From contig CAVPXM010000054.1 in the NCBI GenBank assembly GCA_963709405.1, positions 1-64,000 on the forward strand: a stretch of DNA of 64,000 nucleotides, read 5' to 3'. This document shows positions 41,277-62,042 of the stretch, one piece after another (positions within the stretch are counted from its first letter, which is position 1; every line of letters starts with the position of its first letter). The notes below the pieces were generated by a model, which saw nothing but the letters and a program-made list of their open reading frames with translations, was not told the origin of the DNA and did no database searches. Source of the DNA: an uncultured Nitrososphaerales archaeon. GTDB lineage: Archaea > Thermoproteota > Nitrososphaeria > Nitrososphaerales > Nitrososphaeraceae. The position numbers and the translations under genes were made by a program.

Positions 41277-42131
41277 TTGAGTAGTGGTGATAGTAATAAG
41301 GAAGTTACAAGTTATGCTCCAGAGCGGAATAATATTGATAATAATGAGGTGCTGGCACCAGCAACCACACAGGCTAACATCAAGCTATCAATTCGGAATG
41401 TTAATGCATGGTTTGGAAAAAAACATGCAGTGAAAGACGTTAGTTTGGATGTTAAGGAAAATAGTGTTACAGCTTTTATCGGACCTTCTGGATGTGGTAA
41501 AACAACTCTTCTTCGTTGCATAAATCGCATGCATGAGATGACTCCAGGAGGAAAATCAGACGGTGAAGTCGTGTTGGATGGTCTTAATATCTATGATAAA
41601 TCTTCGGATCCTGCCATAATAAAACGGCGTATAGGTATGGTTTTTCAAAAGCCTAATCCTTTTCCAACCATGAGTATATATGATAATGTGGCCGCAGGAT
41701 TGAAACTTAATGGTGTTAGGGATAAAAAGCTGATCCGTGATATCGTCGAGCAGAGTCTTGTGGAAGCTGCGCTATGGGAAGAAGTAAAGAATGAACTTCA
41801 TATGCCTGGAATGGGTTTATCAGGCGGACAGCAACAGCGTCTTTGCATAGCTAGAGCACTTGCCATGCAACCTGAGATACTTCTAATGGACGAACCAACT
41901 TCTGCTTTAGATCCAATTGCATCCTCTAAAATTGAAGAGCTTGTCCAACATTTGAAAGAACATTTGACCATAATTATCGTAACTCACAATATGCAGCAAG
42001 CAGCCAGGGTGTCAGAATATACTGCATTTATGTATATCGGTGAATTAATAGAATATGACCAAACCAAAGATATATTTAAGAATCCACACAAGGAATTAAC
42101 TGAAAAGTACATTTCTGGAAGATTCGGCTAA
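41277..42131 (+). CDS. pstB: Phosphate ABC transporter ATPase
   Basis: [36 protein letters not shown]. Confidence 0.97.
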
Positions 42132-42205
42132 AAATGTATGAAATTTATGCGAACGAAATGTCATGAAGAGTCTGATAACGATGTTTTATGGAATTGTAGT
42201 CATGG

Positions 42206-42865
42206 TTGTTGTGGCTTTTGGCTAGACTGCTAGATGTAGGTTTAGATCGTATTCGTAATATAATTACGGATATGGCTAGCCTAGCTGAAATCTCGGTGTT
42301 CTCTGCTTTAGAGGCGTATCAAAGCGAAGGCAATGCAAAGAAACACATTTTTGAGCAATCAGAAAAGCTCAAAATGCTACAAGACGAGGTAACTGATCTT
42401 GCAGTAGAACTGATAGCGCGCTATCAACCTGTTGCTACTGATCTCAGGTTTATCAAGTCTTGTATGGAAGTTGCATATGGATTTTCTAGGTATGGACGCT
42501 ACTCCTATGACATTGTAGATGTACTTGAAACGCTTGGGCCTTTATCGGGTTGTGATAAGTCTGCAGTTTCAGAAATGGCAATAACTGTCAGAAAAATGAT
42601 TCTACTAAGTGTAGATGCGTTACAGTCTAGAGACAAAACGGCTGCGCAGGATCTATATCAAATGGATGACACAGTCGATACTCTTTACAGAAAATATTTG
42701 CGGGAACTTGTTTCATCCCTATCAAAAAATAGTTCAGAAGAACCACGGTGCTATATTTCGAATTTACTTATTTTAAGATACTTAGAGCGAATTTCGGATC
42801 ATGCATGTTACGTTGGAGATTCTATTTATTATATCATAACTGGTACCTCTAGTCCCAGGAGATAA
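42206..42865 (+). CDS. phoU: Phosphate signalling protein PhoU
   Basis: RYQPVATDLR, DDTVD, YLERISDH. Confidence 0.95.
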   Translation: MLWLLARLLDVGLDRIRNIITDMASLAEISVFSALEAYQSEGNAKKHIFEQSEKLKMLQDEVTDLAVELIARYQPVATDLRFIKSCMEVAYGFSRYGRYSYDIVDVLETLGPLSGCDKSAVSEMAITVRKMILLSVDALQSRDKTAAQDLYQMDDTVDTLYRKYLRELVSSLSKNSSEEPRCYISNLLILRYLERISDHACYVGDSIYYIITGTSSPRR

Positions 42866-44057
42866 CTGCCGTTACTAAATATCTAGAAATAGTATATCAA
42901 TTTATTAACATCTATAAGCATGTGATCCATTGCTTGAGTACTGTCAATATCATAGTTAATTGTTGTACTTACACAGATAGGTTACATTTTTGATTACCTA
43001 CATGGGTTACACTTTGCTGCTTGTTCTTGTACGTACGGTGGATGTAATTAATCTTTAGAAACATCTCTGATGGAGTAAGGCCATTTATTCCTCCATGTTC
43101 TCTGGTTTCGTTATATGCTTTAACAAAGATATCATATCTTATTTTACCATCATCTGTGTTTGGTATATCCTCAACTGCTAAAAACTCATTCTTTACTATC
43201 TTGTTATATGCTTCTACCTTTCGTTGTAACTGTGGATAGGAATTGGGTATTTGCTTATCCTTTATCTGATTGTGTACAAGAAAACGTCTAAATATTTTGG
43301 ATGTAAACTGTTTTCGATTATCATGCATTATCTTTCTGGGCTTGCCATTAATGATTATCCATTCTTCCAGTACGTTAATAACATCTACTGACCTCTTTCT
43401 TTCAGACCACTTGCTAGCTACTTTTCTTGAACAATCGTCCAGACAGCTAATGATGTAATTCCTTTGACTAGAATTACTCAGATAGAAAGGTCCAAGGATA
43501 TCCAACTGCGCACCTGTACCATATCGTTAGGTCGTTTCATTGCAAACCTTTTGTATATTTTATTATTCCTTGTCTTACAGTTTAGAACATTTAGACCATG
43601 TCTCTTTAGTATCTTGTATAAAGTTCGAGTGCTTAATGAGATTCCAACAACCTTTCTTAATCTAAACTTGATCCTATTACATCCAAATCTCTTGGTTAAT
43701 CGTAGATCAAGTATTGTCTCCTGTATTTCAGATGTTATCTTCTTGTACTTGATATTATGAGGTCTTCTTGAGTTATCGGATAGACCTTCTGTTCCTTTAT
43801 GTTCATATCTCTTATTCCATTTGTAATACGTCTTCCTGGAGACACTATACTTTTTACAAATATTGCTTATGGTGTCACCAGTCCATTCTTTTTCGTGGAT
43901 TAGGTTGAATCTAGTTATGATTTCTATATGTATACACTTCCTGACAGCAGAAGTGTAACCCATGTCTGTAATCCATGTGAACTATTTTAAGGATTTCTGT
44001 TTTTCTTAATCTTAGTATAGTTCACCTCTGTTTACATACACATCCAGTAGTTTTTTC

Positions 44058-44177
44058 GGATAGTAATCCATTCGAGGCTCACCCTCACTACCGTCTTTAT
44101 CCATTTGTTAAGGAGATGCCACAGTTAGCTAATCGAGGCTTCACCCTCATACAGACAGTCGTGGTTAACACCTTAAC
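44058..44177 (-). ncRNA. Putative bridge/seek RNA of the IS110 element
   Basis: Two stem-loops with 11-nt internal loops around a shared UGAGG...CCUCG hairpin; loop segments match the insertion target and one element end. Confidence 0.8.
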
Positions 44178-44209
44178 TATAATGATAATAATAATTGAAT
44201 TAATCATCA

Positions 44210-45268
44210 TCATCCTAACCTCTCATACATTCGTCTTTCTTTCATAATCCAATAAGCAACCTTCAGCAATTTGGCTGCAGCAGCTACAGCAGCTTTAGAA
44301 TTACCTTTCTTTTTTGCTATTCTATAATAGAACTGAGCTATGTTACTATTCTTTTCAGTGCGAATATGTGCGTGAACACATTCTAGCATTATCCATCGTA
44401 AGTATTTGCTACCTGCCTTTGTTATGCTGCTTCCATAATGTGTTACTCCACCAGAACTATGTGTTGATGGTACTAGACCTGCGTACGAACACAAGTGGTA
44501 CGAATCAGGAAACCTATTGATATCTCCAATTTCACTAACGATTAACAAAGCTGAATAATATCCAATACCTGGAATCGTCATCAGTAATTTAGCGATCTCA
44601 TCTTCTTTAGCAAGCAGTAGTATCCTCTTAGATACAGTATTAACTTCATCATTCAACGATTTAATAACACGAAGACAACCATTAATTCTATAATCATCAT
44701 ATCCTTCTAGTTTATCCATATTCCTTCTGGTAAATGTACTGGTACGATCGACATCTGAGGCCTCTATACCCTTCATAAGCGTAATGCTATGTACCTTATT
44801 CTTTAGTTTAGTTCTCATTCTTACAAGTGCGGATCTATGCCTAACAATGTCTCGTAGTTCCATTATTCTTTTGTTTGGAACATAGCATTCAGCTATGTAT
44901 CCTCCTCTCAGTAGATCAGCTAATTTAACCGCATCAAGTTTGTCGGTCTTTATTTTGGCCGAGGCAATAGCTCTTGTCTTGGTTGGATTGGATAATCGTA
45001 TATCTAGGTGTCTCTTTCTCAAGCATTCATAAATGTTGTACCACATACCAGACGATTCCATTACGACCTTAGCGTTATTGCCTGGACTGAGACTATCGAA
45101 GAATTCATTCACTTTTATCAGGTTATTGTCTACTCTAGAATTATCCAGTACCTTTCCTTTTTCGTCAAGAACGGCTACCTGTAGATAGTTCTTGTGAACA
45201 TCCATTCCCACAAACATACTCTTCTTACATACGCTACCGTCTGCTTTAGACTTACATAATTCGTTCAC
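44210..45268 (-). CDS. IS110-family DEDD recombinase, intact
   Basis: VGMDVH, VMES, KTDKLDA, IPGIG, SYAGLVP...SSGG. Confidence 0.95.
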   Translation of the reverse strand: MNELCKSKADGSVCKKSMFVGMDVHKNYLQVAVLDEKGKVLDNSRVDNNLIKVNEFFDSLSPGNNAKVVMESSGMWYNIYECLRKRHLDIRLSNPTKTRAIASAKIKTDKLDAVKLADLLRGGYIAECYVPNKRIMELRDIVRHRSALVRMRTKLKNKVHSITLMKGIEASDVDRTSTFTRRNMDKLEGYDDYRINGCLRVIKSLNDEVNTVSKRILLLAKEDEIAKLLMTIPGIGYYSALLIVSEIGDINRFPDSYHLCSYAGLVPSTHSSGGVTHYGSSITKAGSKYLRWIMLECVHAHIRTEKNSNIAQFYYRIAKKKGNSKAAVAAAAKLLKVAYWIMKERRMYERLG

Positions 45269-45493
45269 ATATAGTTAGCTATAATGTCACCTATGTTAGG
45301 AAGTACAACAGCTAACCAAACCAATTTATCGTGTGCTATCCACAAGTACTATCATTGTATTTAGATTTCAATCTAAATCTAATAACAGCTTGCCACGACA
45401 AATAACTCGATACTAATTAACGTATTCTATATATTCTATATAGTAGTATATAGTGCTATTAGATATATATAGGTAGTTTGTTGATACTTAGAT

Positions 45494-45958
45494 ATGATAG
45501 AATCATCTACAGAAAAAATATTTCCAAAAGATAATAACGTAAAGATAGAGCAAACAAGGAGCCAAAATGATGATAAGATGGTTCAAAAGTCACTTACAAA
45601 TGAAACTGGACTTACGATTATTCAATTATCCCGACAGATTAAGGATCTTGACAAGAAAAACACAAGAATAGAAGAACTACTTTCATCTATCAAGAAAGAC
45701 ATTAAGAATGTAGTACTGGCCATAAAGGACAGTCAACAACTCGCATCAGACGGAGCAACTAGAATGAAGGAATTTCACGATCAGATAGCTCAATTACAAA
45801 TGCAAACACAAAAAATTGAACAGGTTATTAATGACGACTCTGTGTCTAAAAAATCAAAGAAAGTTAAGAAAGATAAGAAAGATAAGAAGCAGAGTAATAA
45901 GGAAAAGGATAAGAAAAGCAAGAAGAAAGCAAAAAGTATGAAGAAAAAACAGAAGTAA
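45494..45958 (+). CDS. Coiled-coil protein with Lys-rich C-terminal tail
   Basis: Heptad-like middle region; tail SKKSKKVKKDKKDKKQSNKEKDKKSKKKAKSMKKKQK. Confidence 0.75.
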   Translation: MIESSTEKIFPKDNNVKIEQTRSQNDDKMVQKSLTNETGLTIIQLSRQIKDLDKKNTRIEELLSSIKKDIKNVVLAIKDSQQLASDGATRMKEFHDQIAQLQMQTQKIEQVINDDSVSKKSKKVKKDKKDKKQSNKEKDKKSKKKAKSMKKKQK

Positions 45959-46002
45959 TCGTCGTATATACACGAAAGAGATATGCGGAGTCGTAATTCT
46001 GA

Positions 46003-46641
46003 TTGGAATTATATTTATTAAGACACGGTGAGTCAGCAAAAATTGCTGGTTTGAGCCGCGGATCTAAAGTCAGTAATGGAAATTCAGGCCTTACAGAAAA
46101 TGGGAGAAAGGAAATTACCAGAATTGCAAAATCAATAAAGAGATTCAATACTACTTTTGATGTCATCCTAACAAGCCCTCTCAATTCTGCGATGCAAACT
46201 GCAAAGATAATTTCCAATACCTTCAAAATGAAAAATAAAATAGTGATTTGTGAAGAATTAGTTCCGGAAGGTAATAAACTAAAATTGTACAATAGGCTGC
46301 ACCAGTTTACATCAGAATCGTCAATATTCATGGTCGGTCATGAGCCGTATCTCACGAATATAATCGATGGAATCATTTCGCAGCACCGAAACAGAAGCAA
46401 TACAACGAGATCAGTAGCAAGTAGTACAAGAGTGAAAGGTATGACAAGAGTGGGAAGAGGTATCGTCCTAAAGAAAGGGGGATTGGCCAAAATAAGGATA
46501 ATTTCAACTGCTCCTGAATTAAGAGGAGAGTTAAGATGGTTACTTACACCAAGGATCCTCAAATCCCTGTATGGAGAGTTCACCACGGTCGAAAAAATCA
46601 GGCAGAAAAAGGAAAACTCGGCCATTGAAAAAGTTTTGTAA
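46003..46641 (+). CDS. sixA: SixA-type phosphohistidine phosphatase
   Basis: LRHG, LTENG, TSPL, QTA, VGHEP, LKKGG, LRWLLTP. Confidence 0.88.
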   Translation: MELYLLRHGESAKIAGLSRGSKVSNGNSGLTENGRKEITRIAKSIKRFNTTFDVILTSPLNSAMQTAKIISNTFKMKNKIVICEELVPEGNKLKLYNRLHQFTSESSIFMVGHEPYLTNIIDGIISQHRNRSNTTRSVASSTRVKGMTRVGRGIVLKKGGLAKIRIISTAPELRGELRWLLTPRILKSLYGEFTTVEKIRQKKENSAIEKVL

Positions 46642-46849
46642 AGATATTTGTAAACTGTACAAAGCCAAGAGGAATAAGGCATCGCCAAGTTATTACAATT
46701 TGGGATGTAAGCGTTGTGTGGAATGCGAGATATTTCTCAAATATGACGGCATGAAATGTCCTTGCTGCGATCATATCTTACGAGTCAAGCCACATAACAA
46801 CATATCAAAAGGAAAATTGCTTCAAACTGTTCACTACATATTAAATTGA
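46571..46849 (+). CDS. Small Cys-rich zinc-finger protein
   Basis: CKDIC, KRCVEC, CPCC; overlaps the sixA end; start uncertain. Confidence 0.7.
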   Translation: MESSPRSKKSGRKRKTRPLKKFCKDICKLYKAKRNKASPSYYNLGCKRCVECEIFLKYDGMKCPCCDHILRVKPHNNISKGKLLQTVHYILN

Positions 46850-47478
46850 TAAATAAATAAGCATCGACAGGTATGAATTGAATAACTATCCTGCCAATCG
46901 CTATAGTTATGTCATTTTTTCACTTGCTCACGACTAATACTATCCTAGCACATGTCTTGAAATAGTCTCGAAGATTGTTGAGGAAAACTGGAACGAGTCT
47001 AGGTAGTGCTTGATTATCCTAAAATAGACTAAGGCCCAGATGATGACATCAGCGTATCCCAAGATGAAAGCCGCTATAGGAAAAGGCAAAGACCTACGAT
47101 TGGAGCTCAGGTCAAACAAATCAAATGGCACTTATCGGGTTACTGATGAAAAGGTAAGGAAACTCCTAGAATATCGGCATTCAATAGAGGATATGAAGTT
47201 GATACTCGACCCTGTGAGTTATTTGTTTATCTTTGATGCTATTAGAGTTGGAAAGAAAATTACGTTGACCTGGCAGCGGCGACGAATATCAAAAACACTT
47301 CCATGCCTTTCAGATACAACTCATCGAGTACTTCCTTGAGAAATATTCTACACTATACTGGCATGAAAGATTTGCAGTATTATGACTTTAACGATGGAAG
47401 CTTCGCATCAATCTGCTATTTGTCTAGATATACTACCAGCCCACCTGATCTCAATCAATTATTGGAAGTACATTCTAT

Positions 47479-59322: not shown

Positions 59323-60360
59323 TGTTGTACTTACACAGATAGGTTACATTTTTGATTACCTACATGGGTTACACTTTGCTGCTTGTTATTGTACATACTG
59401 TGGATGTAATTAATTCTTTGTAGAAACATCTCTGATGGAGTAAGACCATTAATCCCTCCGTGTTCTCTAGTTTCGTTGTAGGCTTTTACAAAGATATCAT
59501 ATCTTAGTTTTCCATCATTTATGTTTGGTATATCTTCTATTGCTAGGAACTCATTCTTCACTATCTTGTTATATGCTTCCACTTTACCCTGAAGCTGCGG
59601 ATAGCGATTTGGTATTCGTTTATCCTTTATCTGATTGTGTACAAGGAAATGTCTGAATATGTTAGATGTAAACTGCTTTCCACTATCATGCATTACTCTA
59701 TCAGGTTTGCCGTTGATCACTATCCAATCCTCTAATACATTAAGAACATCTACTGACCTCTTCCTTTCAGACCATCTGCTAGCTACTTTTCTTGAACAGT
59801 CGTCTAGGCAGCTAATGATGTAATTCCTTTGACTAGAATTACTCAGATAGAAAGGGCCAAGGATATCCATCTGTACCATCTCATTTGGATGCTTCATGAC
59901 AAACCGTTTGTAAGTTCTTGTTTTGGCCTTACACTTGAGGATATTAAGCCCATGTCTCTTTAGTATCTTGTATATGGTTCTGGTGCTTAATGAGATTCCA
60001 ATAACCTTTCTCAATCTAAACTTGATCCTGCTGTACATCCAAACCTTTTGGTTAATCGTAGATCAAGTATTGTCTCCTGTATTTCAGATGTTATCTTCTT
60101 GTACTTGATATTATGAGGTCTTCTTGAGTTATCGGATAGACCTTCTATCCCTTTCTGTTTGTATCTGTTATTCCACTTGTAGTAAGTCTTTCTGGATACA
60201 CCGTATCTTTTACAAATATTAGATACTGTATCACCAGTCCATTCTTTCTCATGTGTTAGATTAAACCTTGTATTGATTTCTATATGGATTCACTTCCTGA
60301 CAGCAGAAGTGTAACCCATCTGTGTAAGCTATAATGTCACCTATGTTAGGAAGTACAACA
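59323..60360 (-). mobile_element. IS481-family element, full length, transposase frameshifted
   Basis: TGTTGTACTT...AAGTACAACA ends; 6-bp TSD ATTACT at 59317-59322 and 60361-60366. Confidence 0.92.
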
Positions 60361-60978: not shown

Positions 60979-62042
60979 TTAGTGTTGGATCCTCTTAAGT
61001 TTTGTTTCGTATAGGCCAATCTTTCTTTCATTGTATAGTTTCTTGTATGTTAGCATATGCCACATTATAGTGCATATCTTATTTGCAACATGTGTTATTG
61101 CAATGTGACGCCCATGTCTTTTGGCCAGCCTTAGATAGAATTTCCTTAATCTACTGTCAGTTCTAGATGCAGTATTGGCTGCTTCAATTAATATCCATCT
61201 TACCTTTTTATTACCATCTTTCATCCTTCCCATATACAATGGGTTTCCAGATTGATGTACTGATGGACATAATCCAGCCCATGATACAAGTTTTTGAGGT
61301 GAACTAAATCTGTTAATATCGCCAATTTCAGATGATATCATCATTGCAGAGAAATAATTTATTCCTGTCATACTCATCAATATTTTAACTGATTCATTAT
61401 TTGATGCGTCTATCCTTTCTTTGATTCAATATTTTTGATCTCTGTAGTAAGAAATTCAATCTGCTCAATGTACTCATGCAGCAAAATCTGGTCATTGCCA
61501 GTTACTTTTAGATCCCTTAGCCATTGTAATCCCTTTATTCCAAATATCTTGGAATAATTAAAGTTCATATCATCATATTTATCAAGTAATGAATGTGTTC
61601 TATTAATTACTCTGGTTCTATCCTGTACCAAATTTGTTCTTAGCCTGAGTAATGACCTATCTCCTCTAGTCTCTCTGTCTGCAATGTAACATTCAGCTAC
61701 AACAAGATCTGATCTAAGTAGATGTGCAAGTGTTCTAGCATCAAGTTTATCGGTCTTTATTATTCTTGCCTCAGCAATGGCCTTAGTTTTCAAAGGATTA
61801 GCCAGTTTAACATCAATATTATGTTTCTCAAATGCCTGGTATGTCTTTAGCCAAAGGTTACCTGTAGATTCACAGACTGCTTTAGACATACCATCACCAT
61901 GCTTCCTCTTAATGGATGAAGCAAATGATTCAGCTTGTTCCAACGTATTATTGTAATTGGTTTCTTTGATTATGGAACCATTCGAATCCATTATACAAAC
62001 TACACAATTCCGTTTTCCAATATCTACTCCTATATAGTTCAG
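60979..62042 (-). pseudogene. IS110 DEDD recombinase, frameshifted near 61415
   Basis: YIGVDIG, VCES, KTDKLDA; SWAGLCP...QSG in the second frame. Confidence 0.9.

Follow-up and report, generated by a model that had tools for sequence, protein, structure and literature searches.

A left-end box that co-varies with the fourth guide of the two-loop RNA in an archaeal IS1111-type element

The element, its insertion site and its recombinase gene

The window, which is the whole 64,000-nucleotide (64-kb) stretch of DNA that was analysed, belongs to a Nitrososphaeraceae MAG of 4.83 Mb in 100 contigs, whose nearest relatives among named records are Nitrososphaeraceae archaea, and contains an IS1111-type element of the IS110 family (Table 1). 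Its borders were placed on the basis of uninterrupted target copies elsewhere in the genome and of contig joints. Specifically, the two flanks of the element are contiguous at approximately 30 other places in the genome, and the joint 43970 to 45277 is present in 5 contigs of run X1 and 3 contigs of run X2, both of which are soil DNA runs. By motif count, the target context has 31 copies in the genome: 27 are uninterrupted, 2 are occupied (by the 1306-bp element and by a relic on contig C42) and 2 are others. The insertion is site-specific and without target duplication beyond the shared core, as in the IS1111 group. The element has inserted into the 5′ end of a multi-copy host IS; the first ORF of this IS begins at 43963, a distance of 7 nt from the insertion point. 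The element in the window is the sole full-length copy in the genome, and fragments of its relatives are found on contigs C5, C30, C37, C42, C44, C65 and C25. An end-to-end joint, as expected of a circular intermediate, was absent among the joints listed in four runs, which consist of contigs only, so that rare forms are lost.

Table 1 Features of the element and its surroundings in the window.
Feature	Position	Strand	Description
Host IS	42969-43963	minus	HTH ORF and integrase-like ORF; approximately 30 other genome places
IS1111-type (IS110 family) element	43971-45276	minus	1306 bp
Right sub-terminal inverted repeat GTTCACAT	43975-43982	minus	8 bp, 4 nt from the tip
Inverted repeat GTGAACTAT / ATAGTTCAC	44016-44024 and 43978-43986	minus	Perfect, 9 bp
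TATA-like box TTAAAATA	43983-43990	minus	Directly upstream of right sub-terminal repeat, pointing outward
Two-loop bridge/seek RNA	44056-44180	minus	Covariance model R1, 130 bits
D3, donor loop 3′ strand (AATGGATTAC)	44063-44072	minus	Identical to right-end tip sense strand ATGGATTAC, 9 nt
D5, donor loop 5′ strand (AAAGACGGTAG), the fourth guide	44088-44098	minus	
T3, target loop 3′ strand (ATTAGCTAACT)	44123-44133	minus	Identical to left-junction sense strand TAGCTAACT, 9 nt
T5, target loop 5′ strand (ACTGTCTGTA)	44150-44159	minus	Complementary to right-flank sense strand TACAGACA, 8 nt
Recombinase gene	44213-45217	minus	335 aa; DEDD_Tnp_IS110 and Transposase_20
Left-end box AGACGGTAG	45234-45242	minus	Identical to D5 guide positions 3-11
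Left sub-terminal inverted repeat ATGTGAAC	45263-45270	minus	Reverse complement of 43975-43982; conserved in relatives
Further uninterrupted target copy	~60256-60360		
Second, different IS110-family gene	61126-62036	minus	Two tblastn pieces, 37-45% identity

The sequence at the insertion point differs between free and occupied targets. All 27 uninterrupted targets read AGCTTAC, and the left junction reads AGCTAAC in both occupied copies (45273-45280 in the window). The T3 guide of the RNA described below encodes AA, and the D3 and T5 guides encode TA; therefore, the two junction dinucleotides differ.

The recombinase has the domains of the IS1111 group, namely a RuvC-like N-terminal DEDD domain (PF01548, 94.8 bits) and a C-terminal Transposase_20 domain (PF02371, 84.8 bits). 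The longest ORF (44210-45268) starts with GTG inside the left sub-terminal repeat. Relatives align from residue 1 of a protein starting with MFVGMDVHK, and the Pfam domain begins at residue 3 of that protein; the start codon was thus assigned to the ATG at 45217. The sub-terminal repeats are 8 bp long, within the 7-17 bp of the group, and lie 6 nt (left) and 4 nt (right) from the tips. Approximately 240 nt of non-coding sequence separates the stop codon (44210-44212) from the right tip at 43971, in agreement with the downstream RNA of IS1111 elements.

Two further features were observed at the right end. The TATA-like box is a candidate junction promoter that, in a circular form, would initiate transcription within the left end; in the integrated element, the box faces the start of the host IS ORF at 43963. 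The right ends of relatives have A/T boxes (TTTAAAAA, TATAAA and TTAATA) at the same place. The perfect 9-bp inverted repeat forms a third hairpin that takes in the right sub-terminal repeat. A shorter stem (GTGAAA/TTTCAC), with changes on both sides, is present in the relative L032, and the hairpin was not seen in L035 or L049.

The two-loop RNA and the match of its fourth guide

The RNA folds into two units, each consisting of a stem, an internal loop and a hairpin. An alignment with six relatives gave a consensus structure of 27 pairs, 11 of which have compensatory changes, and was used to build covariance model R1. R1 matches downstream of related genes numbered 27 in 86 sources and 19 in 80 sources (genome and metagenome loci), and the RNA was found in 19 of the 151 sampled genomes of the class, including that of the element itself. 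An Rfam scan of 42000-47000 gave no match at E ≤ 1. Contigs of two soil RNA libraries (runs X18 and X19), which are 90-95% like the element, cover 44101-44327 and 44907-45278; DNA carry-over is possible in such libraries, and the contigs show neither transcription nor transcript ends. Genomes of archaeal ammonia oxidisers carry active-looking members of the group with clean two-loop RNAs, and genomes G135 and G100 have about 20 RNA matches each.

The organisation of the guides is largely that of bridge/seekRNAs. There are two internal loops, the strands of the target loop match each DNA strand across the insertion point, and one strand of the donor loop (D3) matches the right-end tip over 9 nt. 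The matches indicate that T5 and T3 read the target and that D3 reads the right-end tip in the known way, and that D5 is the guide that departs from it. A canonical right-donor guide would be complementary to the core and the left tip, and D5 can pair there only with ACTA (4 nt); the sequence-only reading had noticed that the 5′ guide of loop 2 does not match the upstream end.

That reading had instead matched D5 over 9/9 positions to a site about 35 bp inside the element, which our analysis confirmed. Measured from the left end, the box begins 34 nt into the element; 20 nt separate it from the left repeat, and 16 nt separate it from the downstream ATG at 45217. It falls within the 5′ part of the recombinase ORF, as had been stated, only if the longest ORF with its GTG start is taken; with the start codon given above, the box lies in the leader. 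The box was also said to have the opposite orientation to the other three guide matches, which is imprecise: it is opposite to T5 (antisense), its positional counterpart in loop 1, and to the expectation for a 5′ strand, and T3 and D3 are both sense-identical. D5 positions 3-11, which are identical to the box, are the same loop positions that T5 uses.

Within the window, the 9-mer AGACGGTAG has exactly two occurrences, 44088-44096 and 45234-45242; each lies in the element and on the minus strand, and together they form direct repeats 1146 bp apart. The 9-mer occurs 23 times on both strands of the 4.83-Mb genome, or approximately 2.4e-6 per position, which gives chance odds of approximately 1e-4 in the ~56-nt left-end leader and approximately 6e-3 anywhere in the element. 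Allowing for the choice of 9-mer, a chance match anywhere in the element is well under 2e-2. The complementary 9-mer was not found in the element. Resemblance of the site to a donor-left/core/target-right junction, as had been proposed, was not borne out. The flanks of the box match no half-site, neither the right-end tip nor the target, and, if D5 paired in the manner of T5, the dinucleotides in the would-be core position are CT, TT, CA and GT in four lineages, unlike the TA/AC of the element's own core region.

Co-variation of guide and box in related elements

The co-variation check suggested by the sequence-only reading was performed on homologous elements. D5 strands were taken from the R1 model alignments, and left ends were placed by the repeat and the conserved N-terminus. 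The 27 RNA matches with a usable left end gave 22 distinct guide/left-end pairs; RNA matches at contig ends, next to broken genes or without a gene (solo RNAs) have no usable left end and were not counted. Guide and box co-vary across these elements down to 47% protein identity (Table 2). From lineage to lineage, the hairpin-adjacent letters (TAG, TAA, TTGT and TACT) change jointly in D5 and box. This element and L032 share the same left tip, as do L035 and L200, while the D5 letters differ within each pair. As the tips are constant within these pairs while the letters of D5 change, D5 follows the box and not the tip.

Table 2 Same-sense matches between D5 and the left-end box in relatives.
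Element	Protein identity	Matched sequence	Match
This element		AGACGGTAG	9
L032	60%	AGACGGTAA	9/9
L035/L048/L192/L210	47%	AGATGGTTGT	10/10
L062			9
L200		AGATGGTACT	10/10
L201		GCGACAAT	8/8
L031 and L111	88-90%	box AGACGGTGA	7
L049, L197, L129			6
L113/L114, L205, L080, L033			5 or fewer

Among 16 elements of the well-scoring clade, cognate D5/box runs average 6.9, non-cognate runs 4.7 and reverse-complement runs 4.2. The comparison was repeated with 10 lineage representatives, for which L031, L111, L062, L033, L129 and L113 were dropped as near-duplicates and L080, which scores 4, was kept. The mean cognate run was 7.1, compared with 4.88 (SD 0.47) for permuted pairs and 4.1 for the reverse complement. 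One of 100,000 permutations reached 7.1 (p ~1e-5), a value that is indicative only, as the relatives are not independent and the lineages were picked by the analyst. Shuffled left ends of the 10 lineages gave a mean of 4.44 and a maximum of 5.3 in 300 shuffles. Chance, which had been left open, is ruled out by the recurrence of the match and its co-variation in homologues. The pattern that had been named as speaking against the box was a guide that matches the true end in homologues with no conserved internal match, and the opposite was seen. These comparisons indicate that the box is a conserved, guide-cognate part of the left end of the element.

Canonical complementarity of D5 to the tip, scored over the best 6-nt window with a shifted register allowed, reaches 6/6 in L048 and 5/6 in three lineages; the other six of the 10 representatives, this element included, score 4/6 or less. 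The box is located between the left repeat and the start codon in every lineage seen. Its spacing from the left repeat varies (14, 17, 20, 24 and 40 nt). The distance to the start codon is 6-31 nt in six lineages, and the box lies approximately 66-95 nt upstream of the ATG in four Nitrosopumilaceae-type lineages. As a separate candidate, the box was considered as a mere repetition of the left tip in inverted orientation (or of the right tip in direct orientation). The relation held in L048, was borderline in L197 and L205 (7/9) and failed in the present element, and this description was rejected; the inverted-copy relation (8/9 in L048) was found only in Nitrosopumilaceae-type elements.

Box variants are also present among relics in the genome, namely AGACGGTAA (C44), AGACGGTGG (C42) and AGACGATAA (C25), and a relic RNA on C69 has the D5 strand AAGACGGTAA; the relics lie on different contigs, and guide and box cannot be paired. 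A loose end at 45217 in run X2 belongs to the contig of a diverged relative that keeps the exact box in an otherwise different leader. The box of this relative and its neighbouring letters would match the D5 of L146 over 11 nt, a match that cannot be linked to one element.

The distribution of the feature was examined with a hairpin-anchored donor-loop search of L031-L190, which found 20 elements. Same-sense runs of at least 7 were present among these 20 only in L031, L032, L035, L111 and L135, and reverse-complement runs of at least 7 in L127 (8) and L150 (7), which are AT-rich cases. The D5/box feature thus looks clade-restricted, a variant rather than a general property of IS1111 elements. 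Structure-based extraction of loop strands replaced a simple scan, at 49 loci, for the longest substring common to the sequences on either side of the gene. That scan was dropped as too noisy: shuffles reached approximately 8 on average and up to 16, and many of the matches were those of T3 to the left flank.

Bathyarchaeia-type elements (L040, L041, L042, L122, L133 and L135) have a GC-rich left-end hairpin just before the start codon, and 5-8 nt in its loop are identical to the D5 of the same element (8 nt in L135). Another arrangement was observed in genome G100, where the right end of one element abuts the apparent left repeat of another (L200/L213; CACATGGAT then ATGTGAAT) and two RNA types recur approximately 1.3 kb apart at at least 8 places. 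This suggests a composite or nested pair that may spread together.

Possible roles of the box and comparison with known systems

D5 and the box are identical in sequence and guide register, are conserved and co-vary. The simplest reading of this relation is that D5 would form a 9-nt duplex with the box on its bottom (template) strand, because the match has the length and the register of a guide. The partner would then be DNA, with its bottom strand paired, and the purpose would be end recognition or synapsis. We tentatively favour a mechanism in which this pairing would dock the complex of recombinase and RNA on the left end. Within the donor loop, D3 would grip the right-end tip and D5 the left end, with the box serving as the clade's working "right-donor" site, displaced to the interior side of the sub-terminal repeat and onto the opposite strand. 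The RNA structure with its 11 compensatory pairs was counted in favour of docking, as was IS621, in which both strands of the donor loop bind donor ends (PMC13626964). Several points were counted against it. The variable spacing between repeat and box is a poor fit to a rigid place in a synaptic complex, and the match is imperfect in many elements (7 nt, 6 nt, or 5 or fewer). D5 and D3 would pair with one DNA strand, whereas the two strands of a loop in IS621 read opposite DNA strands (PMC13626964). Lastly, the bacterial IS4321 has no box and has a left-tip-complementary segment (n = 1).

The RNA-guided autorepression raised in the sequence-only reading is possible, and we consider it the less likely mechanism. 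By binding the box on its template strand, within the recombinase promoter or leader, the complex would block transcription, a negative feedback that would need no cleavage. A roadblock could tolerate the variable spacing from the tip, and binding without recombination is plausible at a site whose would-be core is not conserved. The location of the box between repeat and start codon in every lineage, within 6-31 nt of the start codon in six of them, also agrees with repression, but the four Nitrosopumilaceae-type lineages with the box far upstream of the ATG do not. Moreover, the literature search found no paper joining a bridge recombinase, a donor-binding loop and repression. The variable spacing (14-40 nt) and the leader position fit a repressor role almost as well as docking.

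A relation at the RNA level is rather improbable. The leader box and D5, having the same sense, would bind a common partner, which would be the recombinase (mimicry with translational feedback) or a hypothetical antisense RNA of the left end shared by both. All lineages with a match of at least 8 nt have it in the same sense, and in the Bathyarchaeia-type elements the 5-8 nt lie in a hairpin loop before the start codon, as translational operators often do; ISPpu9 provides a partial precedent (PMC12288879). However, the box of the present element is not followed by a hairpin resembling that of the donor loop, and mimicry predicts neither the register nor the length of a match that covers exactly the T5-type guide positions. 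A shared antisense partner is hypothetical, and the element contains no 9-mer complementary to the box.

Still less probable is a box with no present function, which would be a relic of an old end or of a duplication, or would follow incidentally from an inverted repeat that the left tip forms with interior sequence. The box region of L048 is an 8/9 inverted copy of its left tip, which beats all 500 shuffles, and imperfect matches are found in many elements. In the present element, however, the inverted repeat is 5/9 and 75% of shuffles are as good, and 7/9 or more is reached in only 4 of the 10 lineages. The co-variation down to 47% protein identity also speaks against loss of function, and the relic of an earlier end that had been suggested is unlikely, because joint changes of guide and box are seen in at least four lineages. 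Finally, a cryptic inversion or deletion site used by the recombinase is very improbable. D5 does lie in the loop that normally specifies the recombination partner, and the two 9-mers are directly repeated. However, the dinucleotides in the would-be core position (CT, TT, CA and GT) vary between lineages and differ from the element's own TA/AC, no half-site is matched by the sequences flanking the box, and no strand-changing joint is listed in four runs (weak evidence, as these are contigs only and rare forms are lost).

Irrespective of the choice between docking and repression, the donor loop has, on balance, probably been rewired. Both of its strands would read one DNA strand, at the right-end tip and at the left-internal box, resulting in a new geometry of end recognition or synapsis or in self-repression.

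The layout of the element is that described for the IS1111 group (PMC11187229; PMC11208160). The IS1111 seekRNA elements ISEc11, ISKpn4 and ISPa11 have a DEDD recombinase, sub-terminal repeats and a downstream RNA, as here (Siddiquee et al., 2024, PMC11187229). In their RNAs, the segment that pairs with the top strand precedes, on the 5′ side, the one that pairs with the bottom strand, and T5 and T3 follow the same order in the present RNA. Only target matches are described there, with the remark that end recognition may differ from IS110, and the sections consulted do not mention a left-end box. The present element differs in being archaeal and in having a simple internal loop as its donor loop.

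The bacterial IS1111 members IS4321/IS5075, whose targets are Tn21-type inverted repeats, have the same layout. The RNA region of the IS4321 copy L221 has a 9-nt target-complementary match and an 8-nt match identical to the right-end tip, and the sub-terminal repeats are 10 bp long. In this one element, same-sense matches within the initial 70 nt of the left end do not exceed 6 nt, and left-tip-complementary segments are present.

The bridge RNA of IS621 (IS110 group) has two internal loops with two guide strands each, one loop reading the target and the other the donor ends, and a short natural right-donor pairing, all as here (Durrant et al., 2024, PMC11208160; Hiraizumi et al., 2026, PMC13626964). 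Its RNA lies upstream of the gene and the guide order is reversed, unlike here, and its right-donor guide pairs with the core and positions 10-14 of the top strand at the tip. Compared with IS621, the full-length match in the present element is to an internal box on the other strand.

ISPpu9, also of the IS110 family, has a downstream RNA, Ssr9, described as having high complementarity to Asr9, an antisense RNA that pairs with the leader (5′ UTR) of the recombinase mRNA (PMC12288879). The sequence shared in ISPpu9 is tens of nt long, is carried in duplicated A/B boxes and acts via the antisense RNA (PMC12288879). By comparison, the shared sequence here is a 9-10-nt strand of a guide loop. With respect to repression, the guide RNA of TldR-type RNA-guided repressors, which derive from transposon nucleases, takes the protein to a promoter region without cutting. 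Their protein family differs from that of the present recombinase, and repression by the latter is hypothetical.

A left-end box for the fourth guide was not found described in the text of the literature searched, the IS1111 donor-guide drawings of Durrant et al. being outside that text. Work is under way to turn bridge recombinases into programmable genome-editing tools, and their rules of donor recognition come almost entirely from IS621. End recognition by IS1111-type elements is stated to be an open question in PMC11187229, and a co-varying box read by the fourth guide away from the tip provides a concrete hypothesis for it. Such a box may offer a new rule for donor design or a built-in RNA-guided off-switch. 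The co-evolution of D5 and the box suggests that the element is held or regulated in a way not yet described, which, if true, would be a new geometry of RNA-guided end recognition or synapsis, or the first RNA-guided self-repression in the IS110 family.
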